Sequence record: MZ726791.1
Source: Escherichia phage vB_EcoM_ASO1A
Length of the DNA: 64,000 nucleotides
Strand: one strand, 5' to 3'
Positions 2,795-57,232 of this stretch are shown here, piece after piece. The notes under the pieces are model-generated. The model saw nothing but the letters and a program-made list of their open reading frames with translations, was not told where the DNA came from and ran no database searches. Both the position numbers and the translations under genes were made by a program. Position 1 is the first letter of the stretch. Each line of letters opens with the position of its first letter.

Positions 2795-2884
2795 GTTTTG
2801 ACAGAAGACCAATTACAGCAAACTTAATCTACTCATCTGACACGAAATCGGACAAAGAAGATATTTGGTCTGGTCATTGAGAAT

Positions 2885-2961: not shown

Positions 2962-3038
2962 ATTTTGCAGAAGACCGTATTCAGCAACAAAATACTTTTT
3001 GCGGATAAAAGAAAAAACACGGTCTGGCAATGTATTAA

Positions 3039-3115
3039 GGTTAGGAAGCACATAAGGTATGTGCGGTCGCCTGTTAAGCGAATGGCACAGGGTTCGAATC
3101 CCTGACTAACCGCCA
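3039..3115 (+). tRNA. tRNA-Asn (anticodon GTT)
   Basis: Acceptor GGTTAGG/ACTAACC, D-stem GCAC/GTGC, anticodon loop CTGTTAA, T-arm CAGGG-TTCGAAT-CCCTG, CCA. Confidence 0.7.
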
Positions 3116-3124
3116 AATTTAAAT

Positions 3125-3212
3125 GTGTCGTTATCCCGTAGATGGTAGCGGTGGGGACTGTAAATCCCTTGTCATTGAGACTCGGTAGGTTCGACTCCTA
3201 CACGGCACACCA
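3125..3212 (+). tRNA. tRNA-Tyr (anticodon GTA), type II with long variable arm
   Basis: Acceptor GTGTCGT/ACGGCAC, anticodon arm GGGGA-CTGTAAA-TCCCT, long variable arm, T-arm GTAGG-TTCGACT-CCTAC, CCA. Confidence 0.65.
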
Positions 3213-3217
3213 ATAAA

Positions 3218-3295
3218 GGTTATGTAGTTTAATTTGGTTAAAATACTCCCCTGTCACGGGAGATGATGAGGGTTCAAATCCCTTCGTAACCGCCA
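3218..3295 (+). tRNA. tRNA-Asp (anticodon GTC)
   Basis: Acceptor GGTTATG/CGTAACC, anticodon arm CTCCC-CTGTCAC-GGGAG, T-arm GAGGG-TTCAAAT-CCCTT, CCA. Confidence 0.65.
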
Positions 3296-3321
3296 ATTTT
3301 GAGAGGGCTATTTAGCCCCTC

Positions 3322-3354
3322 CCTTAAAGGGTTCTTACGAGTATCCTTTAAAGG
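3322..3354 (+). repeat. conserved hairpin element copy A (TTAAAGGG-TTCTTACGAG-TATCCTTTAAAGG)
   Basis: Imperfect palindrome with conserved loop; related copies near 4169, 6671 and 35415. Confidence 0.5.
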
Positions 3355-3356
3355 AG

Positions 3357-3429
3357 CAGAAGACCAAATACAGCAAGAACGTATGAAATTTCAAGCCAAT
3401 TTAATTTTGAAAATTTAAACTTGGTCTGG
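3357..3429 (+). repeat. inter-tRNA spacer unit CAGAAGACC ... GGTCTGG (copy 3 of 4)
   Basis: Same terminal motifs as units at 2802-2873, 2968-3027 and 3443-3574; ends are complementary (AGACC/GGTCT). Confidence 0.45.
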
Positions 3430-3495
3430 CTCAACAAATTTACAGAAGACCGTTTACAGCAAAACTTAAACAATCTATTTCTCCGGTAAAGAAAA

Positions 3496-3560
3496 GGCGA
3501 AGGTTCGATTCCTTCACTCGGCAGATGTCGAGTTGGTGTAATGGTAGCACTTAAGATGAT
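3496..3560 (+). ncRNA. tRNA-like fragments: T-arm hairpin (GAAGG-TTCGATT-CCTTC) + 7-bp acceptor-like hairpin (ACTCGGC/GTCGAGT) + D-arm-like GTGTAATGGTAGCAC; pseudo-tRNA or structured RNA
   Basis: Read directly; elements are in non-canonical order (3' half before 5' half), so no canonical cloverleaf. Confidence 0.3.
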
Positions 3561-3723
3561 AAACAACGGTCTGGTAATTATCTTTGTAGATAAGTTATTA
3601 AGCTTACCTGTGAGTATGCGACCACAAAGGGTGAAAGGGTAAATTCTAGATTTAAACCCAAAAAGGCACATCGCTACAGACCTTAAGCAAGTCTGGGTAG
3701 CTTATCTACAAAGATAATTTAAT

Positions 3724-3798
3724 GGAAGTGTAGCAGAATGGTGATGCGGCAGACTTTTAATCTGACAGGCGATGGGTTCGAATCCCTCCACTTCTACC
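3724..3798 (+). tRNA. tRNA-Lys (anticodon TTT)
   Basis: Acceptor GGAAGTG/CACTTCT, anticodon stem CAGA/TCTG loop CTTTTAA, T-loop TTCGAAT, CCA; T-stem has two weak pairs. Confidence 0.55.
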
Positions 3799-3804
3799 AA
3801 AAAT

Positions 3805-3881
3805 GGTTCAGTCGCAGATAAGGTAATGCAAGGGTTTCATAAGCCCTATGAATGTGGGTTCGATTCCCACCTGAACCTCCA
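3805..3881 (+). tRNA. tRNA-Met/Ile2/fMet (anticodon CAT), second CAT tRNA
   Basis: Acceptor GGTTCAG/CTGAACC, anticodon arm AGGGT-TTCATAA-GCCCT, T-arm GTGGG-TTCGATT-CCCAC, CCA. Confidence 0.65.
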
Positions 3882-3882
3882 A

Positions 3883-3958
3883 GCTGGTATAGTTAAGAAG
3901 GTTATAACACTCCCCTGATAAGGGAACATCGGTGGTTCGATTCCACCTACCAGTACCA
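3883..3958 (+). tRNA. tRNA-Ile (anticodon GAT)
   Basis: Acceptor GCTGGTA/TACCAGT, D-stem GTTA/TAAC, anticodon loop CTGATAA, T-arm GGTGG-TTCGATT-CCACC, CCA. Confidence 0.7.
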
Positions 3959-3973
3959 ATTTCAATAAAGTTG

Positions 3974-4002
3974 TTGACATTGAGATGTGACTACTTTATA
4001 GT
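3974..4002 (+). promoter_or_regulatory. strong sigma70-like promoter (TTGACA - 17 nt - TATAGT) inside tRNA array
   Basis: Read directly; followed by ~200 nt without tRNA or ORF. Confidence 0.6.
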
Positions 4003-4168
4003 AACCTTAGTTTTCGTTGCGTAGCGTCTATTTTGCAAATTTAAAATAAATGCAAACGACAATGTTTTTCTGGCAGTAGCTTGATAGGCTAAACACCAGT
4101 GAGGTCTTCCAATCCCTCATCAAAGAATTTGGCGTACTCGCCCACGGTATGATTAATAAGGTGGGCAT

Positions 4169-4199
4169 CTTTAAGGGCTTTCTAAGAGAGTCTTTAAAG
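4169..4199 (+). repeat. conserved hairpin element copy B (CTTTAAGGGCTTTCTAAGAGAGTCTTTAAAG)
   Basis: Shares AGGG-YTTTCTAAGAGAGTC core and palindromic TTAAAG flanks with copies A and C. Confidence 0.5.
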
Positions 4200-4206
4200 A
4201 TAATTA

Positions 4207-4288
4207 CGGGGCGTATCTCAGCGGTCTTCTAAACCGCCGTTAACCGAGTAAGTGGAGTATGCGGGTTCGAGTCCTGCCGCCTCGACCA
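4207..4288 (+). tRNA. atypical tRNA-like gene, anticodon TCT (Arg) with no canonical D-arm and an extended variable region
   Basis: Acceptor CGGGGCG/CGCCTCG, anticodon arm GCGGT-CTTCTAA-ACCGC, T-arm GCGGG-TTCGAGT-CCTGC, CCA; only 7 nt between acceptor and anticodon stem. Confidence 0.4.
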
Positions 4289-4431
4289 ATTTAGTTAGCA
4301 GATTACTTAGACGACCTAAGCGGGTCTTCCTGTAAGGAGGTGGTCTGTATCTCATGTTTTCCAGAACATGTAAATAATCTGAGAAGGGGCTTTACAGTGT
4401 TGCGAAAATACGGTAAGCTTCGAATTACAGT

Positions 4432-4514
4432 ATGGGACGATGTTAAGACTCTAAGGCATGAGCAACGGCCTCCAAAACCGTTTCAAAGGGGTTCAACTCC
4501 TCCGTCCCATGCCA
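4432..4514 (+). tRNA. tRNA-Trp (anticodon CCA), enlarged D region
   Basis: Acceptor ATGGGAC/GTCCCAT, anticodon stem ACGG/CCGT loop CTCCAAA, T-loop TTCAACT, CCA. Confidence 0.5.
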
Positions 4515-4527
4515 AAGTCTTATTAGG

Positions 4528-4615
4528 GGTAGGTAGCGGCTAATGGTAGCCAAACTGTATTGAAAACAGTTGCCACTGTAGAGATACGGTGAGGGTTCGA
4601 CTCCTTTACTTACCG
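4528..4615 (+). tRNA. tRNA-Ser (anticodon TGA), type II, 3' CCA not encoded
   Basis: Acceptor GGTAGGT/ACTTACC, 3-bp D-stem, anticodon arm ACTGT-ATTGAAA-ACAGT, long variable arm, T-loop TTCGACT. Confidence 0.55.
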
Positions 4616-4769
4616 CCTAATAAGATTTACACCGTCCATGCTTGCTCGCATTTTCGGTTTATCCCTCGTGTATTGTCGTACACTGATAAAGCACCTAGTA
4701 GGTGTCACGGAGAAGAGATAATATCAAGCTCTCCAAAGGTTCTAGTCACCGGATTAAACAAGACTATGC

Positions 4770-4795
4770 AAAGACCTATTTAGGTCTTTTTAGAG
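4770..4795 (+). terminator. rho-independent terminator-like hairpin (AGACCTA/TAGGTCT + T-run)
   Basis: Perfect 7-bp stem followed by TTTTT; ends a ~150 nt non-coding stretch after tRNA-Ser. Confidence 0.5.
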
Positions 4796-4871
4796 GGCTT
4801 CTAAGGTTATTAGTCGCTTGTTGTGGAACCTTGTTGCTCAGGTTCTTAGAAGTTCTCTAAAAAGATTTAAT

Positions 4872-4950
4872 GGGAGATTGACGGCAACTTGGTAGACCTA
4901 TCTCGCTTAGAACGAGATGCTTGAGGGTTCGAATCCCTTGTCTCCTACCA
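4872..4950 (+). tRNA. tRNA with Leu anticodon TAG, Leu-like D-arm but short variable arm
   Basis: Acceptor GGGAGAT/GTCTCCT, anticodon arm TCTCG-CTTAGAA-CGAGA, T-arm GAGGG-TTCGAAT-CCCTT, CCA; D-loop CAACTTGGTAGA. Confidence 0.5.
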
Positions 4951-4957
4951 AATTAAT

Positions 4958-5033
4958 GCAGGTGTAGCAAAATGGTTATGCGGCTGACTCTTAATCAGTA
5001 AGACGATGGGTTCAATTCCCTCCACCTGTACCA
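4958..5033 (+). tRNA. tRNA-Lys (anticodon CTT)
   Basis: Acceptor GCAGGTG/CACCTGT, anticodon stem GCTGA/TCAGT loop CTCTTAA, T-loop TTCAATT, CCA; paralogous to Lys(TTT). Confidence 0.6.
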
Positions 5034-5039
5034 GACATT

Positions 5040-5115
5040 GGGGATGTAGTTTACATGGTTAAAACATAAGTTTTGCAAACTTAAGTACAGGGTTCAATTC
5101 CATGCTTCTCCACCA
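5040..5115 (+). tRNA. tRNA-Ala (anticodon TGC)
   Basis: D-stem GTTT/AAAC, anticodon arm TAAGT-TTTGCAA-ACTTA, T-loop TTCAATT, CCA. Confidence 0.6.
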
Positions 5116-5121
5116 ATTAGT

Positions 5122-5196
5122 GCATCCATAGTTTAAACGGGAAAATTACAGTCTTCCAAACTGAGGTTGAGGGTTCGATTCCCTCTGGATGCTCCA
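5122..5196 (+). tRNA. tRNA-Gly (anticodon TCC)
   Basis: Acceptor GCATCCA/TGGATGC, anticodon stem CAGT/ACTG loop CTTCCAA, T-arm GAGGG-TTCGATT-CCCTC, CCA. Confidence 0.65.
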
Positions 5197-5203
5197 AATT
5201 AAT

Positions 5204-5279
5204 GCTCCTATCGTATAATTGGCTATTACGGTTGCCTTGTAAGCAACTTATCAGGGTTCGAATCCTTGTGGGAGCACCA
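5204..5279 (+). tRNA. tRNA-Thr (anticodon TGT)
   Basis: Acceptor GCTCCTA/TGGGAGC, anticodon arm GTTGC-CTTGTAA-GCAAC, T-arm CAGGG-TTCGAAT-CCTTG, CCA. Confidence 0.7.
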
Positions 5280-5282
5280 ATT

Positions 5283-5372
5283 CAGAGGTCAAGTGAAAGA
5301 CCGCTGGTGTCAACTGAAGACCGTAACAAATTCCACGGAGTTGAGTTAGCGGCACAACTTCAGACCTCTTTC
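5283..5372 (+). ncRNA. candidate structured spacer RNA (long-range stem CAGAGGTC ... GACCTCTG enclosing internal hairpins)
   Basis: Complementary 8-mers ~80 nt apart between tRNA-Thr and tRNA-Val; no ORF, no tRNA fold. Confidence 0.25.
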
Positions 5373-5374
5373 AT

Positions 5375-5449
5375 GCTCGCTTAGTTTATATGGTAAAACA
5401 TCACCCTTACAAGATGAAGAAAAAGGTTCAAGTCCTTTAGTGAGTACCA
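5375..5449 (+). tRNA. tRNA-Val (anticodon TAC)
   Basis: Acceptor GCTCGCT/AGTGAGT, D-stem GTTT/AAAC, anticodon loop CTTACAA, T-arm AAAGG-TTCAAGT-CCTTT, CCA. Confidence 0.65.
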
Positions 5450-5450
5450 T

Positions 5451-5528
5451 GTTCCAGTATCCCAATTGGCAGAGGATGCAAGCTCAAACCTTGTATTAGT
5501 GACGGTTCGAATCCGTCTTGGAACACCA
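5451..5528 (+). tRNA. tRNA with Leu anticodon CAA, short variable arm
   Basis: Acceptor GTTCCAG/TTGGAAC, D-loop CAATTGGCAGA, anticodon stem GCAAG/CTTGT loop CTCAAAC, T-arm GACGG-TTCGAAT-CCGTC, CCA. Confidence 0.5.
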
Positions 5529-5533
5529 ATTTT

Positions 5534-5609
5534 GCAGGATTAGTTCAAATGGATAGAGCAACAGTCTACGAAGCTGTTAATAGGGGTTCGAATCCCTTAT
5601 CCTGCGCCA
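5534..5609 (+). tRNA. tRNA-Arg (anticodon ACG)
   Basis: Acceptor GCAGGAT/ATCCTGC, D-arm GTTC-AAATGGATA-GAGC, anticodon arm ACAGT-CTACGAA-GCTGT, T-arm AGGGG-TTCGAAT-CCCTT, CCA. Confidence 0.7.
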
Positions 5610-5626
5610 GATAAAAAGGTGATACT

Positions 5627-5869
5627 ATGCAAACATTAACAGTAGTTGAACATGAAAACTGTGAGAATATTGAGTTTGTCAGGGTCATTGGTGTTGAACA
5701 CCACATTTTCTTAAAAGTAGGGTACTTATGTGACCCCGCTAGAGTAGAAAGATTTATACGTGATTGTTTTGGTGGTAGACAGCTAAAGAGTGTTATTTTT
5801 GAGACAGTTTTACCAGAAGGTTTAGAAACGAATAATAACATTTATCTCCTTACAAGGATTAGACGATGA
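5627..5869 (+). CDS. hypothetical small protein embedded in tRNA array
   Basis: 80 aa ORF; AAGGTGA SD 7 nt upstream of ATG; directly follows tRNA-Arg. Confidence 0.4.
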   Translation: MQTLTVVEHENCENIEFVRVIGVEHHIFLKVGYLCDPARVERFIRDCFGGRQLKSVIFETVLPEGLETNNNIYLLTRIRR

Positions 5870-6423
5870 GATATTTAAAATATGCTTCATGGATTTTCCT
5901 AGCTTTGCTAGAACCATTAGCAGCAACCTTAGCAGTTATCTTAGCACCTTTCGTAGTTCCATTTTACAGTGAGAAGAAAGGCCACTTACCTTTCGGATTT
6001 AGATGGATGGAGACATATGACAACCCAATTGATGGTGACGAAGGTCATATCGAACGATGGGCTAAGATTAGAAAGATTGGTAAGCTGGGTGTCTACATGC
6101 AGAGAGTCGGATGGCTCTGGAGAAACAAAGCTTATAACTTCTCTTACCATGTATTAGGAAGAGATGTAAAAGATGTTACTAAGTGGAAAGGTAATATCAA
6201 CGTAAGTTCTGACCCTGAAGATAATCAGACAGGTTATCTCCTAATGTGGAACAGTAATGCTTGGGGATTATTCGCTTTTATCCCATCAATTAAAGTCTTT
6301 GGTAAACAATTTTACTGGAGAATTTATATTGGGTGGAAGCTAAAAAGTGTTGTCCCAGAAGAAAGAGCATTCTCAAGGGAAAGAGTTATGTTGGCATTCT
6401 TTATTCATCCACTAAGAAAGTAA
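5866..6423 (+). CDS. hypothetical membrane protein (N-terminal hydrophobic segment, Trp-rich)
   Basis: 185 aa; ATG with AAGGA SD; start overlaps upstream ORF stop (ATGA). Confidence 0.55.
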   Translation: MRYLKYASWIFLALLEPLAATLAVILAPFVVPFYSEKKGHLPFGFRWMETYDNPIDGDEGHIERWAKIRKIGKLGVYMQRVGWLWRNKAYNFSYHVLGRDVKDVTKWKGNINVSSDPEDNQTGYLLMWNSNAWGLFAFIPSIKVFGKQFYWRIYIGWKLKSVVPEERAFSRERVMLAFFIHPLRK

Positions 6424-6431
6424 AGATTTAA

Positions 6432-6507
6432 AGGGGATTAGTTTACAAGGTTAAAACCTCGGTCTTTGAAATCGAAGAAGTTGGTTCAATTCCAACATCC
6501 CCCGCCA
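6432..6507 (+). tRNA. tRNA-Gln (anticodon TTG)
   Basis: D-stem GTTT/AAAC, anticodon arm TCGGT-CTTTGAA-ATCGA, T-arm GTTGG-TTCAATT-CCAAC, CCA; 1:72 mismatch. Confidence 0.6.
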
Positions 6508-6509
6508 AT

Positions 6510-6588
6510 GCTCCATTACTCCAATTGGCAGAGAGGCCAGACTTAAAATCTGTGTTATGTATCGGTTCGAATCCGATATGGAGTACCA
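6510..6588 (+). tRNA. tRNA with Leu anticodon TAA, short variable arm
   Basis: Acceptor GCTCCAT/ATGGAGT, D-loop AATTGGCAGA, anticodon stem CAGA/TCTG loop CTTAAAA, T-arm ATCGG-TTCGAAT-CCGAT, CCA. Confidence 0.5.
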
Positions 6589-6593
6589 AATTT

Positions 6594-6669
6594 AGCGGTA
6601 TAGCATAACTGGCAATGCAACAGTCTCTGAAGCTGTCCTATTAAGGTTCAAATCCTTATGCCGCTGCCA
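6594..6669 (+). tRNA. tRNA-Gln (anticodon CTG)
   Basis: Acceptor AGCGGTA/TGCCGCT, anticodon arm ACAGT-CTCTGAA-GCTGT, T-arm TAAGG-TTCAAAT-CCTTA, CCA. Confidence 0.65.
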
Positions 6670-6670
6670 C

Positions 6671-6701
6671 TTCTAAGGGTTCTTACGAGAGTCCTTAAAT
6701 G
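6671..6701 (+). repeat. conserved hairpin element copy C (TTCTAAGGGTTCTTACGAGAGTCCTTAAATG)
   Basis: Near-identical loop (GGGTTCTTACGAG) to copy A. Confidence 0.5.
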
Positions 6702-6776
6702 TGGCCTTATCATAAATGGTAATGACCCATGCTGTGAACATGGTCTATACGGGTTCAAATCCCGTAGGTCACCCCA
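6701..6776 (+). tRNA. tRNA-His (anticodon GTG)
   Basis: Acceptor GTGGCCT/AGGTCAC, D-stem TCAT/ATGA, anticodon arm CCATG-CTGTGAA-CATGG, T-arm ACGGG-TTCAAAT-CCCGT, CCA; no encoded G-1. Confidence 0.7.
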
Positions 6777-6781
6777 ATTTA

Positions 6782-6858
6782 TAGTCCAAGTAGCTTATAT
6801 GGTTAAAGCGCGTGTCTGAAAAACATGAGAAGAGGGTTCAAATCCCACTGGACTACCA
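6782..6858 (+). tRNA. tRNA-Phe (anticodon GAA), 3' CCA not fully encoded
   Basis: Acceptor TAGTCCA/TGGACTA, D-stem GCTT/AAGC, anticodon arm CGTGT-CTGAAAA-ACATG, T-loop TTCAAAT; odd 8-9 spacing. Confidence 0.55.
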
Positions 6859-6874
6859 ATTTCAAAGGTGCTTA

Positions 6875-7609
6875 ATGAAAGAGATGACAGAACAAGGTAA
6901 GGAGATTTTTAATCTCTTAAAAACCGGTAAAGGGTTTTCTAACCCACTTATTACTGGTGCAGCAGTTCTCGGTGGAACCGTAGCTGCCTCTACATCACTT
7001 GTAAGCTCTATTAGTTCTGTAACAGACCCTACAATGCAGGAGAAACTTGTTGCTGCTGGACTTACAACAGTCCTTCTAAACAGCTTTACAACAAGCCTTA
7101 CAAGCACTACAGCAACTACTAAGACCCTGACAGACTACGGTCAAAAGTCTATTGATGAGTTTTCATCACGTATGCAGGTAGCAAAGGGATATTCCAATGT
7201 TATGAGTGCAGCAGGAGAACAAGTTGGTTGTACACCGTTCAGTGGTATTATGGGTGTTGCTACAGAATATGGTCAAAAAGCTATTGATACAATTAACAGT
7301 ACACTAGAGAGTGTTAACGATGTATTAAGTGACTTACAAGACGCTATTGATGAGGGTCTTGATACTATTTCTGATTTAGCTAATCAGGCTGTTAGTAAGA
7401 TTAATGAAGGTATTTCAAAGATTACAGCTTATGCAGATGAAGTTGTGCAGATGATTGAAGAAGAAGCTGCCCTTATTGCAGAGTACCTTAAAACGAATAT
7501 CAATGGGTTCTTAGCAGGTATCTTACCAGACTGGTTTGACGATGCCTGTAAAACTGGTGTAATTGACACTATTGCAACACCAGAAATGAAGAACGCATTA
7601 CAGAAATAA
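6875..7609 (+). CDS. hypothetical protein (Ala/Ser/Thr-rich N-terminal half, acidic helical C-terminal half)
   Basis: Track ORF 6812-7609 trimmed to in-frame ATG (Met22) with AAAGGTG SD, because the first 45 nt overlap tRNA-Phe. Confidence 0.55.
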   Translation: MKEMTEQGKEIFNLLKTGKGFSNPLITGAAVLGGTVAASTSLVSSISSVTDPTMQEKLVAAGLTTVLLNSFTTSLTSTTATTKTLTDYGQKSIDEFSSRMQVAKGYSNVMSAAGEQVGCTPFSGIMGVATEYGQKAIDTINSTLESVNDVLSDLQDAIDEGLDTISDLANQAVSKINEGISKITAYADEVVQMIEEEAALIAEYLKTNINGFLAGILPDWFDDACKTGVIDTIATPEMKNALQK

Positions 7610-7611
7610 AT

Positions 7612-7704
7612 GGAAGATTAACCCTAAAAGGTAAGGGAGCAGTTTGCTAAACTGCCAGTAGCTGAGAAATCGGTGTACCAGTTCAAGTCTGGTATCTTCC
7701 TCCA
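7612..7704 (+). tRNA. tRNA-Ser (anticodon GCT), type II
   Basis: Acceptor GGAAGAT/ATCTTCC, anticodon arm GCAGT-TTGCTAA-ACTGC, long variable arm, T-arm ACCAG-TTCAAGT-CTGGT, CCA. Confidence 0.7.
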
Positions 7705-7708
7705 ATTT

Positions 7709-7784
7709 GAATCCGTGACAGAAATGGCTATGTGCCTGTCTGCAAAACAGGTTTATAAGGGTTCGAGTCCCTTCGGATTCTCCA
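7709..7784 (+). tRNA. tRNA-Cys (anticodon GCA)
   Basis: Acceptor GAATCCG/CGGATTC, anticodon arm CCTGT-CTGCAAA-ACAGG, T-arm AAGGG-TTCGAGT-CCCTT, CCA. Confidence 0.7.
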
Positions 7785-38043: not shown

Positions 38044-38559
38044 TCAACTTAGTTTTGCAAACTCTCCGTGGAGTTTAATAGCAGCTTCACAGTAAGCTTT
38101 ATGGGCTTCTTCTTCTGTTGTGTACGTCCCTATATGTATAGTCTTACCATTATGGTTAATCTGGGCTATCCACTTACCAGACTTGCTTCTACTTGTACCT
38201 TTTAAGTTTTTTGATGTTCTGGGTTGTCTCCTATTAGACATGTTCTGCTCTTTTGTGGCCTCTCTTAGATTGTCCCAAGCGTTATTCAAACCATCCCCAT
38301 CTTTGTGGTCAATGTGTTTATCAGGCCACTTACCTGTCATCCAGAACCAAGCAATTCGGTGATTACCTGTCCTGTATCCTAAAATCTGTGTGTGCATATA
38401 CACACCAGACCTTGTGCGCTTAATTGCTCCGGCTTGGCTTCCAATGACCACCCTACTACTATGTGGAGGTCTGCCAATCCATGTTAAGACCCCTGTTTCG
38501 GGGTCATAATCTAACCAAGACTTTAACTGTTCATGTGTGAATCCACAATCTCTCATCAA
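38044..38559 (-). CDS. HNH homing endonuclease with AP2-like DNA-binding domain
   Basis: HIDHKDGDGLNNAWDNLR (HNH) and YDPETGVLTW N-terminal motif shared with two paralogs; abuts the DNA polymerase gene. Confidence 0.75.
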   Translation of the reverse strand: MMRDCGFTHEQLKSWLDYDPETGVLTWIGRPPHSSRVVIGSQAGAIKRTRSGVYMHTQILGYRTGNHRIAWFWMTGKWPDKHIDHKDGDGLNNAWDNLREATKEQNMSNRRQPRTSKNLKGTSRSKSGKWIAQINHNGKTIHIGTYTTEEEAHKAYCEAAIKLHGEFAKLS

Positions 38560-41255
38560 TGTACCTCATACCAGCTTTTACCAACCTTACCAGTACCAGT
38601 TACCAGTGTTTCACTCTTTAGTCCTAAGTTCTTAGAGGCTTGCCCGTAATACCAATCAGTGACAGCCTTCACCTCTGCCGTCATACTTTCTGGACATTCC
38701 CAACTCGTCTCATCGTGATAGGAGCACAATAAACGAGCACCTATAGCTGGTTTGCGACCGTTCAACTTCATCAAACCTTCGTCAATCATACGACGGCAAG
38801 CAAGGTTAATTGCCTCGTTCTGAATCTGACTTTCCGAACCCATAAGCAAATAATTCAACAACTTATGTGGAGATTTACACCACAACCAAGCTCCAGCAAC
38901 CTTTACAAAACCCCCTTTAGAGATTGCAGCAGTCTTACCAAACACCTCTTCAAGTGCCTTTTTAGTTGCTTTGTAGTCAGCTTCCAAGTCATCTAGCAGC
39001 TTCTTAATTTTAGGCAAACGAATAAAGTAAGTCTGTTTAGTCAGTGCACCTTCCTGAGTAGTTGCAGCTTTAATCGTCTTAGCAAACTTCTCATCACCTG
39101 CACCGAACAGCAGTGCATAGATACCATTCTTAGCTTTCTTACGGCCTTTGCTAATCTCATGGAGAAGGTTCTCATCCTGAGTAGCTCGACAAGTCAAGAT
39201 ATCCTGCTCATCATTCAAGCTAAAGTAAATACTGTTCAATGTATGTGCATCAGTCCCTGAATAGACAACGTACAGGTCATTCTCAGAGTCATAGCGAAGG
39301 TACTTATCAATCTCTGGGTTCAGGTACTCATCAAAATGTTTGCAGTAATAGCGTCCATCTTCTTGACGAATGAACTCAATTTCTTCTTTACCTTGCGTTA
39401 CCGCTTTGGTGAAGTCTTTATCACCCATAAAGTTACAAAGAAGAACTAGCTGGGCTGAGTTCATATCTACAGAGACAACGTTAGTACCTTCCTCACAAAT
39501 CCATACTGCCCTCATTGGTTCTCCATAGACAGCAGCACCAGACGGTACGTTTACAATACCATACTGTGTCATACGTCCAGTTGAAGTACCAAACACCATT
39601 GCACCAGCACTAAGGCGACCATCAGGACGAATCTGGTTAAGCCAACCTTTTTCATCATCCTTTGAGTTCTCAATAGTTCTGCGTCGGTGCATCAAAGTAT
39701 AGTACTTAGCAATCTTCTGTCCAAGCTCACCTTCAATCGTATCATAAGATGATTCAGTAAGTTTTGGTGAAGTACGGATTAAGCAAGGTTCAAGCAAATC
39801 TGTGTATTTCTTCACAGACCAGTTATGCTCGATGTACTGTACACCTTCATGTTCAACATAACTCAAACCACACCGCTCAACCATTTCCTGCCACTTAGGA
39901 TGCTTTGTAATCATCTTTTTATTGTCTTTGAAACGACAAACTTTGACAGGGCGACCGTCTGAGTCTTTCTTGTAGTTCCAGTCATCTGGAATCCAACCAA
40001 CTGATTTCAAGTAGTCTTTTACAACTGCTACCTGAGTCATACGAGAAACTTCAAACTCAATTGGTGTATATGGTGCATCAATCAATCCTGTGTAGCGACT
40101 TGACTCAAGTTCAAAGTGGTTAACAACGTGGCTGTTATAGTACTTCACAGTTTTGACTGTTTTTACTGGCTTCCAGTCTTTGCATTTCTTACCAATCTTT
40201 GCATTCAACTCATTGCAAATTGCACGAGCATCCTTCATTGCTACAAAACCTTCCTTGTACTCTTCACCAGTTACAGAGTTGGTTGGTGTGTAGCAATTTC
40301 TCTTTTCAATGTTAAAAATCTTTGTAGTTGGCTTACCAAACGGTTTGATTTCGTATGTCTGCATCTCACCGTTACGTACCTGTTGACGATACTTTGTCTT
40401 AGGGTACTTGGTAATTCTCTTCAGTCCATCTGCATGACCGAACGCTTCAACATACTCATTCCAAGCTTTTGCAAACTCTTCTCCAGTGACTTTACCTTTG
40501 GTCTTAATAGTTGGAGGAAGATGTGGTTCAACCTCTGAAGCAAGCTCATTAGTCAACTTGTCAAGTTCCTTTACATGGAACTCCATAAGCTCTTTATCAG
40601 CTTTCCAACCATTGATAGCTTGTTGACTCATCCAGAAAGATGTTTCTTTAGCTCGCATGTAGGTTTCATAAGTGTCTATGCCACACTTCTTAAGCTTGAG
40701 ATACTCATTATCAAGTGCCCGTTTAGTTTTGGCGTTAATACGGATATCTTCTACAACACGAGTGAAGATTTCTGCATTCCACACACCCCAATGTTCAATC
40801 TCTGGTTTACGAACACCAACACGAGCACCCCATGCAGCCAAGCCATGAGCACCTTTATAACCCTTTGGAGTTGGTCTATCCATCCACTGAACACGAGACT
40901 GGATAAGAGAATCCTGAAAGAAATTACTCCACGGCTTACACTTTGGATTATCAAAGTTCCATAAATCCGGTGCAATGTGATTGAAAACCCACCAGTCATA
41001 ACCTAGACCATTATGAATGCAAAGACGTTTTGCCTTTAACGCAAACTCAATACCTTCACGTAAGCCACCCTTAATGTACTTGGTATACTTGTGACCGAGG
41101 ATAGGCTCATCTGTAAAGACCCATACAGGTGGCTCTTCATCGTCAGATTTATAGTCTGCGAAAGCCATTACGTGCACTTTAGTGAACTCAAGGAGTAAAC
41201 CATCAGTTTCTGTATCACCAACTAAATGTAAGTTTTTAAAATCTACGTTTTCCAT
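38556..41255 (-). CDS. DNA polymerase, family A (Pol I-like) with 3'-5' exonuclease domain
   Basis: Exo I motif DTETDGL near N-terminus; ~900 aa; start set to Met11 with AGGGAG SD. Confidence 0.85.
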   Translation of the reverse strand: MENVDFKNLHLVGDTETDGLLLEFTKVHVMAFADYKSDDEEPPVWVFTDEPILGHKYTKYIKGGLREGIEFALKAKRLCIHNGLGYDWWVFNHIAPDLWNFDNPKCKPWSNFFQDSLIQSRVQWMDRPTPKGYKGAHGLAAWGARVGVRKPEIEHWGVWNAEIFTRVVEDIRINAKTKRALDNEYLKLKKCGIDTYETYMRAKETSFWMSQQAINGWKADKELMEFHVKELDKLTNELASEVEPHLPPTIKTKGKVTGEEFAKAWNEYVEAFGHADGLKRITKYPKTKYRQQVRNGEMQTYEIKPFGKPTTKIFNIEKRNCYTPTNSVTGEEYKEGFVAMKDARAICNELNAKIGKKCKDWKPVKTVKTVKYYNSHVVNHFELESSRYTGLIDAPYTPIEFEVSRMTQVAVVKDYLKSVGWIPDDWNYKKDSDGRPVKVCRFKDNKKMITKHPKWQEMVERCGLSYVEHEGVQYIEHNWSVKKYTDLLEPCLIRTSPKLTESSYDTIEGELGQKIAKYYTLMHRRRTIENSKDDEKGWLNQIRPDGRLSAGAMVFGTSTGRMTQYGIVNVPSGAAVYGEPMRAVWICEEGTNVVSVDMNSAQLVLLCNFMGDKDFTKAVTQGKEEIEFIRQEDGRYYCKHFDEYLNPEIDKYLRYDSENDLYVVYSGTDAHTLNSIYFSLNDEQDILTCRATQDENLLHEISKGRKKAKNGIYALLFGAGDEKFAKTIKAATTQEGALTKQTYFIRLPKIKKLLDDLEADYKATKKALEEVFGKTAAISKGGFVKVAGAWLWCKSPHKLLNYLLMGSESQIQNEAINLACRRMIDEGLMKLNGRKPAIGARLLCSYHDETSWECPESMTAEVKAVTDWYYGQASKNLGLKSETLVTGTGKVGKSWYEVH

Positions 41256-41314
41256 TTTTACTCCCTCTAAAATCATTAACCTCATACATTACTGCAAAAA
41301 ATTATAAAAAGCAA

Positions 41315-41344
41315 GTTGACAATGCACTTGACAAGGTGTTAATC
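41315..41344 (+). promoter_or_regulatory. sigma70-like promoter (TTGACA - 18 nt - TAATCT) with conserved spacer CTTGACAAGGTG
   Basis: Read directly in divergent intergenic region 41256-41512. Confidence 0.5.
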
Positions 41345-41512
41345 TTTGCGAAGTGGGTTTTTACTTAAAAGGTTACTTAACAGTTTAACTATACAGATAC
41401 TTTAAAAGTCTTAAAAGATTATTTAATAGCTTTTAAAAAGCTTTAAAGTATAACGTATAGAATACGTTAAGATAAAAGATTAAAACTTAATAGTTACTTA
41501 AAAGAGGCTTAC

Positions 41513-41935
41513 ATGCAGAAAATGTTTGTTCACCCAGACATAGCTGACTTTGTTAGAGCTTTGCAAAAGTTGGAAGAACTTGACATTGCTGCTCAACGGG
41601 AATATGCTCACCATCACAGGAGAATGGTTGATATACAACATGAAATAGAGTTGTCTGAAAACTATGAAGATGACTTAAAATGCTCTGTATTTGAGCATAT
41701 GAAAGATGTTGCTACAGCGAGACGTAAAGCTAAAGACACAGTTGCTTTACTAGATTCTCTTAAAAAGAGGTTGCAAAGTGGTACAGACCTGTGTAATCTA
41801 GCGTCACTGATTAACGATGTTGAAACTTCTTGGGATAGGCACTATTATCCACGTTCTGAAAAGACACTTGACTTTTCTTCATCCGAAAACTTAAAATGTT
41901 CTAGAAAGAAACTTAACCAACTGAGAGAGAAATAA
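41513..41935 (+). CDS. hypothetical early protein
   Basis: 140 aa, AAAGAGG SD. Confidence 0.55.
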   Translation: MQKMFVHPDIADFVRALQKLEELDIAAQREYAHHHRRMVDIQHEIELSENYEDDLKCSVFEHMKDVATARRKAKDTVALLDSLKKRLQSGTDLCNLASLINDVETSWDRHYYPRSEKTLDFSSSENLKCSRKKLNQLREK

Positions 41936-41936
41936 T

Positions 41937-42737
41937 ATGAATATCGATGTAGAAAAGATGCTTGAAGAGAAAGGTATTGACGAAGCATTTTTAATCAATG
42001 CCGTAGAAAGCATGGCTATGATTCTTCGTGGTAACAACTACACAGAACAGTTTATGCCTGCAAGCTATAACTTGCCTGAAGACAAGTCTGATAACGGTGC
42101 TTTTGCAGAACAGGTTAACATGATGCTTTGCGACAAAACACTTGCTTTAGCATCTATCGTTGTAGGTGTTGATGCCCTTGCAGAGTTCATTTTTTATGAG
42201 ATGCAGAAAAATGATTATATTGCCATGACCACTGAAGAAAAAGACTTGCTACTACTCGCAGGTAACGATGAACTAATTGACCTGTTAATTTCATCAACTA
42301 GTGCTGTTATGGCTGCTCTTGAGAAGCGCATGGAAGAAAAACTTTCACGATATGAAAAACTTGATTGGGGTGTAGAAGAATTAAACCCACGAATCAAAGA
42401 AATTATCCAGCAAACTAAAGAGTCTTTGGAAGAAGCTGTTGAAAATGACTCTGTAGCTGATATAGAACCTCTTCAGGTGAAAGTTGCACTGATGATTCCA
42501 GCTATCTCTACGATGATGAATATCGTTGCACTAATCCAACTTTCACAGATGATGGGTGTAAGTATTGAGTTCATTGAAGAGATGACTGGTGGCGTTAGTA
42601 TGCAAGCAATAAATGATGTTTTGGTGAACATTGGTGCTTCAATCATTGAAGAGAAACTACGCATTAACTTCGGTGATGATTTTGTGAAGCAAATCTCAGC
42701 TATGGCTGAAAAAGAGTATGCTGAGCAACTGCACTAA
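41937..42737 (+). CDS. hypothetical highly acidic early protein
   Basis: 266 aa, Glu/Asp-rich; terminator-like hairpin downstream. Confidence 0.55.
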   Translation: MNIDVEKMLEEKGIDEAFLINAVESMAMILRGNNYTEQFMPASYNLPEDKSDNGAFAEQVNMMLCDKTLALASIVVGVDALAEFIFYEMQKNDYIAMTTEEKDLLLLAGNDELIDLLISSTSAVMAALEKRMEEKLSRYEKLDWGVEELNPRIKEIIQQTKESLEEAVENDSVADIEPLQVKVALMIPAISTMMNIVALIQLSQMMGVSIEFIEEMTGGVSMQAINDVLVNIGASIIEEKLRINFGDDFVKQISAMAEKEYAEQLH

Positions 42738-42798
42738 GTCTTTATAAATCTTACAAGCCTCCTTAGTTGGGGGCTTTTTAGTAATTAATGGAGATAAA

Positions 42799-43542
42799 AT
42801 GAGTAATATTATCGCATTTACTGGAAAGGCACGTTCTGGAAAAGACACCTCATGTTCTATTGTGAAGAACATCTTAGAGGATGAGCACGGCTACAATGTT
42901 GCTGTAATGGCCTTTGCAGACAACCTTAAACTGTCTGCATCAAAGATATTTGACCTGACTTGGAATGACCTGTATGGTGAAACTAAAGAGACTCCACAGG
43001 TATTTGACTTGTCATATCCTGAACTGATGTTTAAAGTTACGGAAGCTATGGAGTTCACCTTCAGAGATGAACGTTACCATATGGACTTCAAGCTTATGTC
43101 AGAGTTAACCGGACGATTAATCATGGAGCTTAAGAAGGTTGCTAAACCAACTCTATTGACACGTCTGGGGTTTAGCAAAAAGTATAAATTCTCATCAAGA
43201 CAAATTCAACAGATTTGGGGCACTGAAGTTGTCCGTAAAGTAATGGGAGACAAGTTCTGGTCTAAAGACCTTGAAAAAAGAATGGTTAGATTCTATGAAA
43301 GTTGCTCACTTAGAAATCAATATGGTTTTGTCTTAATCAGTGATTTAAGATTTGACTCTGAAGCTGAGTGGCTGAGTAGATTTGCACACCAAACTATTGA
43401 AGTAAAAAGAGACAATGTGGATAAGATTTCATCACACGTTTCAGAAAATGGGCTATCCACCAAATATGAGCGTGACATTATTCATAATAATGGTACTCTT
43501 ACAGACCTTGAGAACAAGCTAAGAGCCATCATTAAAGTTTAA
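42799..43542 (+). CDS. deoxynucleoside monophosphate kinase (T4 gp1-like)
   Basis: P-loop FTGKARSGKDT resembles T4 dNMP kinase SGVKRSGKDT. Confidence 0.7.
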   Translation: MSNIIAFTGKARSGKDTSCSIVKNILEDEHGYNVAVMAFADNLKLSASKIFDLTWNDLYGETKETPQVFDLSYPELMFKVTEAMEFTFRDERYHMDFKLMSELTGRLIMELKKVAKPTLLTRLGFSKKYKFSSRQIQQIWGTEVVRKVMGDKFWSKDLEKRMVRFYESCSLRNQYGFVLISDLRFDSEAEWLSRFAHQTIEVKRDNVDKISSHVSENGLSTKYERDIIHNNGTLTDLENKLRAIIKV

Positions 43543-43550
43543 AAGAGAGA

Positions 43551-43751
43551 ATGAAGATGAGAGTAAAAGACAATTTTAAAGTTATTGACCACCGTTTAGT
43601 GGAACTCTCATCTCTTTCCAATGAGGTAATGATTGAACGTCTTAAGAGAGTTGAATCACGAAGGAAAGAGATTGCAGATGAAATTCATGAACTGGACAAG
43701 ATTGAAAATGGATTGAAGGCAGAACTACAACGAAGAGGTGCTAATGTCTAA
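43551..43751 (+). CDS. hypothetical small protein
   Basis: 66 aa. Confidence 0.4.
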   Translation: MKMRVKDNFKVIDHRLVELSSLSNEVMIERLKRVESRRKEIADEIHELDKIENGLKAELQRRGANV

Positions 43752-45729
43752 AGGTCGTAAATTGAAAGAGGCTGGTCAGTTTGTTGGTCATTGTGCATGT
43801 CCACGTTGTGGTTCATCAGATGCTGGTTCAATCTATCATCATGACGATGATTCTTATTCGATGACTTGCTTTAGTTGTAACAAAGGTTTCCCAGAGTGGG
43901 ATTTTGATAAAGGACAAATCGTGAGCACTTATTCTACTGGTTCAGACAATAAAAACCGTACTTTCCGTGGGATGGATTTAGACGATGTAAAAGACAACCT
44001 TGAAGCAATGGACTTAAAGGACAGGAAGATTCCTGCAAAAGTTCTTGAGCGTTTGGGTATCAAGGTTGACATTGATAGTGACGGTGAAATTGATGCGCAT
44101 TTCTACCCAACTTACAAACGCAATGAAGATGGCAAGCTAGAGCATGTTGGCTACCGTGTTCGTCACCGTTACCCAGAAGACCATCCAAAAGAGCACCTAC
44201 GCGGTAAGTTAAAAGACTTTTCTGGTGGTGTTGGAGATATTAAAGGTGAACTGGCAATGTTCGGTTCATGGATTGCTCCAGAAGGTGGTAACCGCCTATT
44301 CATCTGGGAAGGTGAGATGGAATGTGCGACAGCAATCTATATGACTTCTCTTGCGATTAAGGACAAGTCTCGTCGTAAGAATTACTGTCACGTATCTGTT
44401 CCATCAGGTGCAAACATCAAGTCTATCAAAGATAACTATCAGTACATTACATCATTTGATGAAATTTACTTGTGCTTTGATAACGATGAAGCAGGTGCTA
44501 AAGCCACTAAAGAGGCTGCTGGTATCCTACCTATTGAGAAGGTTCGTTTATTCCAGTATCCAGAAGGTGTAAAAGACCTTAATGAATGGTGGACAAAGTT
44601 CTATAAAGAGAAAGATACAGTTCTGGAAGGATTTAAGCAGCGTATCTACAATGCACCTCGTTACTGCCCTGCTGGTATCAAGAACTTTGCAGACGGTTTT
44701 GATGCAATGAAGAATCGTGGTCAGATTCCATTGATTCCTTTTCCAGAATCTTTCGGAGACTTGAACAGGCTAACTTACGGTGGTTATGGTTTAGGTGAGA
44801 TTACGACTATTGCAGCACCATCTTCAGTAGGTAAGTCAGCTTACACTCGTGAGATGATTTATTCAGCTTGGAAAGAAACTGATTATAATATCGGTGTAAT
44901 TCCTGTAGAAGATACCTATGAAGAGTTGATGGAAATGCTCTGTGCAATCCACCTGAGCAAACAGATTTCTGAGATTCCTTATGATGAACGGGATTGGGAT
45001 GAATTAAAGGGAGCACACGCAGAGCTTTCAAAAGGTCGTCGCATCCATATCGTTGACCATCAAGGGGCGATTGACCAAGATAACCTGCTGGAGTTTGTTG
45101 ACTATCTTGTTAACAGTTTAGACTGTAAGATTATTATTCTTGACCCTATTACATTGGCTCTGTCACGTTCTGATACGGATGAAGAGGAAGTCTTGTCTGA
45201 ACTATTGCGTCGTTGCAAACGCTACCAGTATGCACAGGTAAACGTTTGTCACGTTCGTAAGAGTGCAGGTGGTCAGAAAGCTAACTCTGAAGGTGGAGAT
45301 ATCTCTGAAGAGGATATTAAGGGTTCTGGTGCGTATTTCCAGATTTCCATGAACAACATTCTGTTAATGCGTAACAAGGTTGACCCAGACCCTGTTAAGA
45401 AAAACTTGACAAAAATCAAGTTAACTAAGTGTCGTCGTCATGGTAAGTCAACAGGTATTGCTGGTCATACTTGGTACAATCCAGACACAGGACGTCTTAT
45501 CAAAGCTTCTGGATGTGGTGTTGACATTGATGGTGCAGCAGAAAATATTCGTCAACAGTTTGGTATTGGTGAAGCTGAAGACCATTATGACGATTCCCTA
45601 CCACATTATGAGGATGAAGTATTTGACCGTGAAACTGGTGAAGTTTATACTGAAGAACAACGTCAAAGTTCAACAATTCCACCAGTCGTAAGTGAGGATG
45701 CAGATGACTGCCCATTCGAAACTGAGTGA
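43744..45729 (+). CDS. DNA primase-helicase (T7 gp4-like)
   Basis: N-terminal zinc ribbon CACPRCGSSD ... CFSC, Walker A in C-terminal half; track start GTG moved to ATG. Confidence 0.8.
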   Translation: MSKGRKLKEAGQFVGHCACPRCGSSDAGSIYHHDDDSYSMTCFSCNKGFPEWDFDKGQIVSTYSTGSDNKNRTFRGMDLDDVKDNLEAMDLKDRKIPAKVLERLGIKVDIDSDGEIDAHFYPTYKRNEDGKLEHVGYRVRHRYPEDHPKEHLRGKLKDFSGGVGDIKGELAMFGSWIAPEGGNRLFIWEGEMECATAIYMTSLAIKDKSRRKNYCHVSVPSGANIKSIKDNYQYITSFDEIYLCFDNDEAGAKATKEAAGILPIEKVRLFQYPEGVKDLNEWWTKFYKEKDTVLEGFKQRIYNAPRYCPAGIKNFADGFDAMKNRGQIPLIPFPESFGDLNRLTYGGYGLGEITTIAAPSSVGKSAYTREMIYSAWKETDYNIGVIPVEDTYEELMEMLCAIHLSKQISEIPYDERDWDELKGAHAELSKGRRIHIVDHQGAIDQDNLLEFVDYLVNSLDCKIIILDPITLALSRSDTDEEEVLSELLRRCKRYQYAQVNVCHVRKSAGGQKANSEGGDISEEDIKGSGAYFQISMNNILLMRNKVDPDPVKKNLTKIKLTKCRRHGKSTGIAGHTWYNPDTGRLIKASGCGVDIDGAAENIRQQFGIGEAEDHYDDSLPHYEDEVFDRETGEVYTEEQRQSSTIPPVVSEDADDCPFETE

Positions 45730-46203: not shown

Positions 46204-47061
46204 ATGTCTAAAGTTGTTAAAATGAAAGCTCCGGTAGAGAAGTACAATGGTACTGAACGTCAAACTCTGCGTTACCTTCTGAAAGATGTTTGGTTTTATT
46301 ACCTGAACACTTCACCACGTCCGGGAAAAGGTAAATCCATTGATAAGAAATTCCCAGGCAAAGACTGCAACTACAGTGTTTCAATTCTGGCAGAAGATGG
46401 TAACAAGCTGTTTAAAGAGTTTACTAAGTCTAAGAAAAACCCAGAAGGTTGGGATAAAGTTACTACTGAAGCAGTTGATGCAGATGACTTCGAAGAGAAG
46501 TTTGGTTGTAAACCACCTTTTGAAGCAGACACTTACTACATCTTGAAAGTAAGTCGTGCAGCAGCTTATAAAGATGGTGCTGTATGGACAGCTAAACAGT
46601 CATTCCCTGTGATGCTGATTGAAGAAGTAAATGGTAAGCGTGTAGCTGTTAAACAGCCGATGAAGAAAATCAAAGCTCAAGCATCTGATAAACATGAAGA
46701 TGACAAGAACTATGATGTAATTCATCCAGATATTGCAGTCGGTAACGGTTCTTTTGGTAGTGTGATTCTTTCTACTCACTTCTACACTTTTGAGAACAAT
46801 GTTCTGACAAAACCTATTCAGGAACAGTTTATCATTGATACTCTTGTACCTTACACTGGTGGTAACGGTGCTAATGGTGAACCTGAACTGGATGAAGATG
46901 AACTGGCTATGCTTGGTCTTGATGGTGTTGAAGATAACGGTGAAATCACTGAAGAAGACGCAACAGACCATAAACCTTCGAATGCTTCTGATGATGGTGA
47001 CGATGAAGACTTGCCAGACCCAGATGACGAAGAAGATGAAGACTTCGATACAGAAGACTAA
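46204..47061 (+). CDS. single-stranded DNA-binding protein (putative)
   Basis: 285 aa with strongly acidic C-terminal tail (DDGDDEDLPDPDDEEDEDFDTED); located between primase-helicase and exonuclease. Confidence 0.55.
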   Translation: MSKVVKMKAPVEKYNGTERQTLRYLLKDVWFYYLNTSPRPGKGKSIDKKFPGKDCNYSVSILAEDGNKLFKEFTKSKKNPEGWDKVTTEAVDADDFEEKFGCKPPFEADTYYILKVSRAAAYKDGAVWTAKQSFPVMLIEEVNGKRVAVKQPMKKIKAQASDKHEDDKNYDVIHPDIAVGNGSFGSVILSTHFYTFENNVLTKPIQEQFIIDTLVPYTGGNGANGEPELDEDELAMLGLDGVEDNGEITEEDATDHKPSNASDDGDDEDLPDPDDEEDEDFDTED

Positions 47062-57073: not shown

Positions 57074-57125
57074 AACTTGACAAGGTGATGTGGGTCTTGA
57101 TAGGCTTACATCACCTTTTTTTTTT
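57067..57125 (+). promoter_or_regulatory. promoter (TTGACA - 18 nt - TAGGCT) superimposed on terminator hairpin (GGTGATGT ... ACATCACC + T11)
   Basis: Read directly after nrdD stop. Confidence 0.5.
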
Positions 57126-57232
57126 TATTGGATGTTAGATATGGCAGAGAACATCATTGGCCTATTCATAGGTTCTGTCTTACTAGGGTTCTTTTTAGGA
57201 CTCTCTTATTGTGAATTAAGAGGCAAGTTAAA

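Follow-up and report, generated by a model that had tools for sequence, protein, structure and literature searches.

The locus between positions 41256 and 42737 of the DNA analyzed here raises two questions: what is controlled from the intergenic region with which it begins, and what is the role of the two genes that follow, the second of which, orf266, encodes an acidic protein carried in most sequence records as a minor tail protein. The DNA is a stretch of 64,000 nucleotides of Escherichia phage vB_EcoM_ASO1A (MZ726791.1), termed the window below, and all positions are those of this 64-kb window. The locus is tentatively explained as the central control region typical of Felix O1-like phages together with a two-gene accessory unit. 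This grading belongs to the explanation as a whole, in which we infer both the transcription of the unit and the mechanism of orf266. The locus has already been annotated, and a role as a divergent promoter has been proposed for it (PMC3185647). What is added here is a correction of the tail label, a promoter cassette present in two copies, conserved motif arrays, and evidence against a DNA mimic. The features on which the argument turns are the following.

41256 to 41512, unstranded: intergenic control region, characterized by its AT content and its nucleotide conservation across Ounavirinae genera
41513 to 41935, plus strand: orf140, corresponding to Felix O1 gp97, Bas63 gp48, and Sf14 gp73; predicted helical hairpin
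41937 to 42737, plus strand: orf266, corresponding to Felix O1 gp98, Bas63 gp49, and Sf14 gp74; acidic, predicted all-helical
42755 to 42779, plus strand: intrinsic terminator closing the orf140-orf266 unit (terminator scan; stem AAGCCTCC/GGGGGCTT, loop TTAGTT, then a T run)
38556 to 41255, minus strand: family A DNA polymerase gene (Pfam DNA_pol_A, phrog_17), the first gene of the leftward operon

The anatomical statements of the original prediction were all confirmed. The region separates the polymerase operon from the replication block and is their divergent control point, as was also assumed in the Felix O1 genome paper, where a divergent promoter region between genes 96 and 97 had been proposed (PMC3185647). 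The minus strand carries an HNH-AP2 homing endonuclease and the family A DNA polymerase, followed by 257 bp of intergenic DNA; the plus strand then carries, in order, orf140, orf266, the intrinsic terminator, a deoxynucleoside monophosphate (dNMP) kinase, a small open reading frame (ORF) of about 65 amino acids, and a primase-helicase. The polymerase frame is open up to 41285, and its probable start is at 41255 (MENVDFK), the position used in most relatives, with GAGGGAG 6 nt upstream; the intergenic region was therefore taken as 41256 to 41512. An AGAGG ribosome-binding site precedes orf140. The start codon of orf266 lies 1 nt past the orf140 stop, and the two genes overlap in Mooglevirus. 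The terminator at 42755 to 42779 is also annotated in MZ726792.1 and is found in the same place in phage Michonne.

For comparison with relatives, the block from 41000 to 43600 was used. It is 100% identical in the Felixounavirus vB_EcoM_ASO1B (MZ726792.1) and 90 to 98% identical in more than 200 further Felix O1-like phages. Both orf140 and orf266 are conserved in more than 250 phage records and are under purifying selection, with ratios of nonsynonymous to synonymous divergence (dN/dS) of 0.02 to 0.17 within the genus. As predicted, both first genes of the rightward unit are without known function: scans of Pfam, NCBIfam, and PADLOC gave no match above threshold, PHROGs supplied only family names, and sequence-profile searches of the PDB gave no match for either protein. 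The proteins of Felix O1 (Felix01p180/p181), Bas63, and Sf14 listed above are direct orthologs in the same slot between polymerase and dNMP kinase. They are labeled "hypothetical" or "minor tail protein," and the published data on their function consist solely of RT-PCR (reverse transcription-PCR) timing and pooled knockout scores.

These two data sets bear directly on when the unit is expressed and whether it is needed. By end-point RT-PCR, Felix O1 ORFs 96, 97, 98, 99, and 101 peaked at 25 min and did not fall in the 5-min class. The proposal that orf140 and orf266 are first-expressed genes was therefore retained only in part: they do accompany the replication genes, but Felix O1 ORFs 97 and 98 peak at 25 min with the polymerase and the primase-helicase. 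A search of the literature found no RNA sequencing study of Felixounavirus infection. The knockout data are those published for PhageMaP pooled knockouts of Bas63, in which gene 49 (g49) is the orf266 ortholog. Fitness scores for g49 were +0.98, +0.97, and +1.12 in S17; +0.42, +0.85, and +0.48 in MG1655 (EcoKI+); about 0 to +1.4 in the TerY-P, AVAST4, and Sir2-HerA hosts; and -1.04 (high variance), +0.71, and -0.26 in BW25113. The scores for the polymerase, the primase-helicase, and g55 were clearly negative (-0.5 to -3.1). Genes g47 (the polymerase ortholog), g52, and g55 were essential, and the dNMP kinase and g51 were dispensable. Phage growth in laboratory E. coli does not require the orf266 ortholog, which is consistent with an accessory role for orf266. 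For Bas63 gene 48, the orf140 ortholog, the S17, MG1655, BW25113, TerY-P, AVAST4, and Sir2-HerA sheets of PhageMaP contain no fitness value; the missing values could reflect a gap in library design or unrecoverable knockouts.

The sequence of orf266 comprises 266 amino acids, 49 acidic and 20 basic, giving an isoelectric point (pI) of 4.2 and a net charge of -29; aspartate plus glutamate (D+E) account for 18.4% of residues and lysine plus arginine (K+R) for 7.5%. Among the 56 ORFs of at least 120 amino acids in the window, it ranks first for negative charge per residue and second for D+E content. All homologs are acidic (pI 4.2 to 4.8), with D+E contents of 13 to 18% (13.4% in the most distant homolog). 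The conserved alignment columns are 58 hydrophobic, 10 acidic (in at least six of seven lineages), and 7 basic. An all-helical model was obtained from an 11-sequence alignment with a predicted local distance difference test score (pLDDT) of 89.8 and a predicted template modeling score (pTM) of 0.88, and this fold had no match in the PDB or among viral structure models. On the basis of the model and the knockout data, orf266 is described as a soluble, moderately acidic protein, predicted to be a helical bundle, that is not an essential replisome subunit.

A profile search against 1.84 billion cluster representatives returned 10 clusters, all of them from the orf266 family itself and in Felix O1-like contexts, so that as judged by this search the family is tiny and restricted to the Ounavirinae. 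The gene is real and constrained, with a dN/dS of 0.13 to 0.17. Within the block, orf266 is the fastest-evolving gene, with 38% amino acid identity between Felixounavirus and Mooglevirus, versus 93% for the polymerase. It nevertheless adjoins the polymerase, dNMP kinase, and primase-helicase genes in every lineage found, and the order of polymerase, intergenic region, orf266 homolog, dNMP kinase, small ORF, and primase-helicase persists down to 21 to 28% orf266 identity; the order of the replication genes is kept in sequences L010, L012, and L016. In Erwinia phage Coenus (L013, 3952 to 5359), two acidic helical proteins stand between the orf140 homolog and the dNMP kinase, one of 187 amino acids with a pI of 4.5 and the other of 283 amino acids with a pI of 4.4. 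Comparison of the orf266 family with these two proteins by hhalign gave probabilities of at most 0.6%, and homology was not detected; they may represent a functional replacement or extreme divergence.

The other gene of the unit behaves differently in evolution: orf140 is at least 99% identical in 202 records, its family reaches phages of Erwinia, Pectobacterium, and Yersinia, and its amino acid identity between Felixounavirus and Mooglevirus is 62%. It is missing at this position in L010. The product is a very conserved protein, modeled as a long helical hairpin (pLDDT 72.5) for which the fold matches were generic only. The synonymous divergence (dS) of orf140 is 0.02 to 0.16, versus 0.2 to 0.6 for the polymerase and orf266. 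Within Felixounavirus, it forms part of an island of low synonymous divergence at about 41120 to 41935, which also takes in the polymerase 5' end and the intergenic region; the same two ranges separate the island from its flanks, and one edge falls exactly at the orf140/orf266 junction. This island could result from constraint at the nucleotide level (an origin or regulatory element) or from a recombination sweep.

Control of the unit was examined through the sequence elements listed here.

41316 to 41345, plus strand: predicted rightward sigma70-type promoter (sequence reading; annotated as a promoter in MZ726792.1)
449 to 471, plus strand: second copy of the tandem promoter, TTGACAAnnnnCTTGACAAGGTG (exact match)
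41388 to 41414, minus strand: candidate leftward (polymerase) promoter, with -10 TATAGT at 41393 to 41388 and a weak -35; annotated in GenBank by similarity only
41364 to 41504, unstranded: six CTT(W2-5)AAG motifs, starting at 41364, 41400, 41410, 41430, 41441, and 41497
41451 to 41469, unstranded: perfect 8-bp palindrome, TAACGTAT-AGA-ATACGTTA (repeat search)

The core of the predicted rightward promoter, AAGTTGACAAnnnnCTTGACAAGGTGTTAATCTTTGCGAAGTGGGTTT, contains a perfect -35 TTGACA (41316 to 41321), a second TTGACA 12 nt downstream (41328 to 41333), and a -10 region of the form TG-n-TAATCT (41337 to 41345, with TAATCT at 41340 to 41345) at an 18-nt spacing, with an A-rich tract upstream. 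TAATCT matches the -10 consensus at three of six positions, and the key positions -12T, -11A, and -7T are present. Relative to a sigma70 consensus of TTGACA (-35) and TATAAT (-10) set 16 to 18 nt apart, it is a weak -10, which accounts for the site not being listed by a simple consensus scan. The GenBank annotation of this promoter is by similarity only. The promoter block is nearly invariant in metagenomic contig L016, where the orf266 homolog is only 28% identical, and is recognizable in L010, where the homolog is 21 to 22% identical. Across the whole genome, the 23-nt tandem motif has just two exact copies, and no further copy was found with up to two mismatches allowed. The copies at 449 and 41316 can be aligned over about 110 nt, and the former heads a DUF5681 gene, a 471-amino-acid gene, and a cluster of 25 tRNA genes (2633 to 7784). 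That the tandem promoter is shared with the tRNA operon gives indirect support for strong, early use, and the strength of the rightward promoter would follow from its conservation and from the paralogue heading that operon. The claim of a strong promoter was accordingly narrowed: a conserved predicted promoter is present, but "strong" was an overstatement for a site with a weak -10.

Several observations concern the second copy of the cassette and related sequences. The copy spans 425 to 601 (plus strand) and is followed by genes at 599 to 970 and 1052 to 2467 and by the tRNA genes. By gene order, the DUF5681 gene is the counterpart of Bas63 g129, scored essential by PhageMaP, and the 471-amino-acid DUF2828/Ro60-like gene is the counterpart of Bas63 g130, a counter to the ppl defense system. 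A third exact CTTGACAAGGTG was found at 57076 to 57130 (plus strand), running straight into a hairpin, GGTGATGT...ACATCACC, and then a T10 run; since it abuts the hairpin and T10, a terminator overlaps the -35-like box at this site.

For the polymerase, TATAGT at 41393 to 41388 is the sole candidate promoter. Felixounavirus, Suspvirus, and Mooglevirus all retain the sequence of this leftward candidate, CTATACAG, and variants of it occur in L010 and L016. Because the candidate lies inside the rightward leader, the two predicted promoters would converge instead of being arranged back to back.

The intergenic region includes the most AT-rich 200 bp of the window (75.5% AT). Its nucleotide identity to Mooglevirus and Suspvirus is 81 to 86%, compared with 68 to 77% for orf140, 53 to 59% for orf266, and 60 to 69% for the dNMP kinase, and over a 361-bp query spanning it, 135 of the 258 matching phage records reach an identity of at least 99%. 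Six of the 47 CTT(W2-5)AAG motifs of the window are packed into 140 bp here, several of them spaced by about 10 to 11 or 20 bp, and similar CTT(W)AAG arrays occur in the corresponding intergenic regions of L010, L016, and Erwinia phage Coenus. The symmetry of the palindrome at 41451 to 41469 is kept by paired changes in Suspvirus and Mooglevirus, although this was judged by eye in an alignment of three lineages and constitutes weak evidence. A structured leader RNA was not supported: an Rfam search of the intergenic region and leader gave no credible match, and RNA folding gave a z-score of -1.46, which is not significant. The region probably also carries binding sites for a regulator, or an origin function.

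The proposed sequence of events is as follows. The host sigma70 RNA polymerase would start at the promoter at 41316 to 41345 by means of the tandem TTGACA and the extended -10. The transcript would cross an AT-rich leader of about 160 nt and then cover orf140 and orf266, most transcripts probably stopping at the intrinsic terminator at 42755 to 42779, and read-through would supply the dNMP kinase, the primase-helicase, and later replication genes. The orf266 protein is probably made in bulk with the replication genes and probably acts by stoichiometric binding to a basic surface of a partner protein, a mechanism suggested by its composition, by the genes with which it is expressed, and by its rate of evolution. 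A neutral knockout, together with faster evolution than any other gene of a block in which the polymerase hardly changes, makes a variable host protein a likelier partner than the replisome of the phage. Some points weigh against this explanation. The -10 element is weak, and the transcription start and the terminator are predicted from the sequence. The BW25113 scores of the g49 knockout are noisy and near or below zero, making a mild general fitness role possible. Lastly, the gene and its position are conserved in all 258 Felixounavirus, Suspvirus, and Mooglevirus records, a strictness seen more often in genes with a core function than in accessory genes directed against the host.

The class II replication cluster of T7 provides the closest model for the proposed action of orf266. 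Embedded in that cluster are the nonessential host inhibitors gp2, gp5.5, gp5.9, and gp1.2, which are small and in some cases acidic. Their genes neighbor those for polymerase, primase-helicase, nucleotide kinase, and exonuclease, and they are dispensable in standard hosts; their host targets are RNA polymerase, H-NS, RecBCD, and dGTPase. There is no homology, orf266 is much larger, and the comparison can serve only as a lead. Two bolder proposals were also formulated, which jointly are considered rather unlikely. In the first, the orf266 family would be an acidic inhibitor with a new fold, directed against a host DNA-binding protein, a nuclease, or a defense system that K-12 laboratory strains do not possess. 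On this view, the position between orf140 and the dNMP kinase would serve as a counter-defense locus of the Ounavirinae, a reading on which the acidic helical proteins found in the same slot of Erwinia phages, without detected homology to orf266, have a bearing. In the second, the near-invariant tandem TTGACA cassette and the CTT(W)AAG arrays would make up one operator or origin element, common to the replication and tRNA operons, through which both are switched on.

Weighing of the alternatives also involves the genes beyond the terminator.

42799 to 45729, plus strand: downstream replication genes (Pfam DNMK, Toprim_2, DnaB_C)
42799 to 43542, plus strand: dNMP kinase (Pfam DNMK)
ending at 43751, plus strand: orf66, the small ORF of about 65 amino acids
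43738 to 45729, plus strand: primase-helicase (Pfam Toprim_2, DnaB_C)

The main rival is that orf266 is a nonessential accessory of a T7-like replisome or of nucleotide supply, for example an adaptor for the polymerase, primase-helicase, SSB-like (single-stranded DNA-binding protein-like) protein, or dNMP kinase, or else a factor for helicase loading or for the origin that acts at the adjacent AT-rich region. The strict synteny with polymerase, dNMP kinase, and primase-helicase down to 21% identity favors this assignment, as do the placement of orf266 in the temporal class of the replication genes, its status as a core gene in three genera, the dispensability of its neighbors dNMP kinase and g51, and the possible mild defect in BW25113. 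It is difficult to reconcile, however, with a gene that diverges far faster than its putative partners (the 38% versus 93% identity given above), with a knockout as fit as those of known nonessential genes in S17 and MG1655, and with the failure to detect an orf266 homolog in Erwinia phages that keep the same replication genes. No known replication domain was identified in orf266 in Pfam, NCBIfam, or PHROGs, and membership of a T7-type replisome was likewise not supported by the nonessential g49. This rival is regarded as unlikely, though it is the best placed of the four.

Less probable again is a role of orf140, orf266, or both as transcription-timing factors that act on the host RNA polymerase or on the intergenic motifs and thereby control the replication and tRNA operons. 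Such factors would fill a gap left by the Felix O1 genome paper, in which no modifier of RNA polymerase was found and temporal control was stated to be unknown (PMC3185647). The promoter cassette of about 110 nt common to both operons, the conservation of the CTT(W)AAG arrays, and the extreme conservation of orf140, with no knockout values in the PhageMaP sheets named above, also fit. Against this, L010 retains the promoter and the motif arrays without orf140 at this site, orf266 is dispensable, neither protein has a recognizable DNA-binding or sigma-related domain, and Bas63 has a separate essential putative regulator, g35.

Marginally more doubtful still is the idea advanced in the original prediction, that orf266 is a DNA mimic of the Ocr or ArdA type that blocks restriction-modification (RM) or BREX. 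The acidic character (pI 4.2, net charge -29; family pI 4.2 to 4.8), the predicted all-helical structure, the place of the gene as the second one read from the rightward promoter, and the dispensability of the ortholog in laboratory hosts are in favor of such a protein. Moreover, the folds of DNA mimics are diverse, and a missing fold match is not decisive. The charge density, on the other hand, is low by comparison. T7 Ocr has 116 amino acids per monomer, with 34 acidic and 6 basic residues (PMC3439906), that is, a D+E content of 29% and a K+R content of 5%, against 18.4% (13 to 18% in the family) and 7.5% for orf266, so that "very Asp/Glu-rich" describes a real acidity in too strong terms. 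Net charge per residue is -0.109 for orf266 and -0.05 to -0.11 in the family, under half the value of about -0.24 for Ocr. Few acidic positions are conserved, the 10 acidic columns standing against 7 basic ones. The structure prediction that had been suggested as a check yielded a confident all-helical fold, but it revealed no relation to a solved DNA mimic, and comparison of sequence and fold with the solved mimics produced no match.

An effect on a defended host, the subject of a second suggested check, was not observed for the type I system EcoKI. The published g49 knockout scores were unaffected on EcoKI+ MG1655 (+0.42 to +0.85), a host on which T7 gene 0.3 (ocr) scored as more essential by the same method. 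Although it carries g49, Bas63 is sensitive to several RM systems, it encodes a separate Lar homolog (gene 32), and g49 is not among the ten validated pairs of counter-defense gene and system of the Bas63 screen. T7 Ocr (gp0.3) and orf266 are alike in being acidic, helical, nonstructural, and dispensable on permissive laboratory hosts. They differ in length (116 versus 266 amino acids), have no sequence or fold similarity, and respond differently to knockout, that of Ocr being depleted on EcoKI+ hosts and that of g49 not. From the low charge density, the lack of a mimic match, and the fit knockout on EcoKI+ MG1655, DNA mimicry by orf266 is concluded to be unsupported and unlikely.

The weakest alternative, that orf266 is a minor tail protein as the name of phrog_4251 and many records state, is almost certainly wrong, since gp98 is not among the 17 proteins found by shotgun mass spectrometry of Felix O1 virions (PMC3185647), the Sf14 virion table (Table 1) contains gp20 and gp29 to gp55 but not gp74, gp49 is not among the at least 23 virion gene products as named in the relevant passages of the Bas63 cryo-electron microscopy (cryo-EM) study, the gene lies in the replication module between polymerase and dNMP kinase and not in the morphogenesis module, loss of g49 leaves the phage fit while tail and baseplate genes have PhageMaP scores of -1 to -4, and no similarity to any characterized tail protein was found in Pfam or fold searches. 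By sequence, orf266 is a genuine member of PHROG 4251, matching the full length of its profile with an E value of 2.5e-144; it is the family name that has no support from virion proteomics, cryo-EM, or genetics. A minor caveat concerns the tip of the Bas63 puncture apparatus, where one small helical density is left unassigned in the passages of the cryo-EM study concerned, which also describe several Felixounavirus annotations as wrong. The Hoc-like decoration protein of Bas63, encoded more than 10 kb outside the structural module, was considered as a counterpart and rejected, as it has Ig-like domains according to the same passages and orf266 is predicted to be all-helical. The orf266 protein is nonstructural, the label being contradicted by three virion studies and by the knockout data. 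The name stands on more than 150 phage records, is propagated by PHROGs, and needs correction.

Identification of orf266 as the phage SSB was likewise rejected, because the protein is predicted to be all-helical and a 285-amino-acid ORF at 46204 carries an acidic C-terminal tail like that of T7 gp2.5. This ORF (46204 to 47061, plus strand; phrog_3877, a family without assigned function) ends in a highly acidic stretch, ...DDGDDEDLPDPDDEEDEDFDTED, similar to the C-terminal tail of gp2.5, the single-strand DNA-binding protein of T7. Its counterpart by gene order, Bas63 g55, is essential and is labeled "DNA helicase/primase*" in PhageMaP. The 285-amino-acid ORF is probably the phage SSB.

On the other side of the control region, the polymerase gene is followed directly by the HNH-AP2 homing endonuclease (38044 to 38559, minus strand). 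EcSzw-2 and UAB_Phi87 lack the endonuclease here, and in PC79-13 the polymerase is annotated as two pieces around an extra ORF; this patchy distribution and the divided polymerase suggest mobile-element traffic in and around the polymerase gene. MZ726792.1 is not fully collinear with the window: a 1638-bp indel lies between window positions 2467 and 41000, the offset between the two coordinate systems being 23856 near window position 599 and 25494 near 41000.

Felixounaviruses have found wide use in diagnostics and phage therapy. The promoter cassette common to the replication and tRNA operons offers a directly testable regulatory target in these phages. If orf266 does bind a host factor, it would represent a new fold among phage host-interference proteins.

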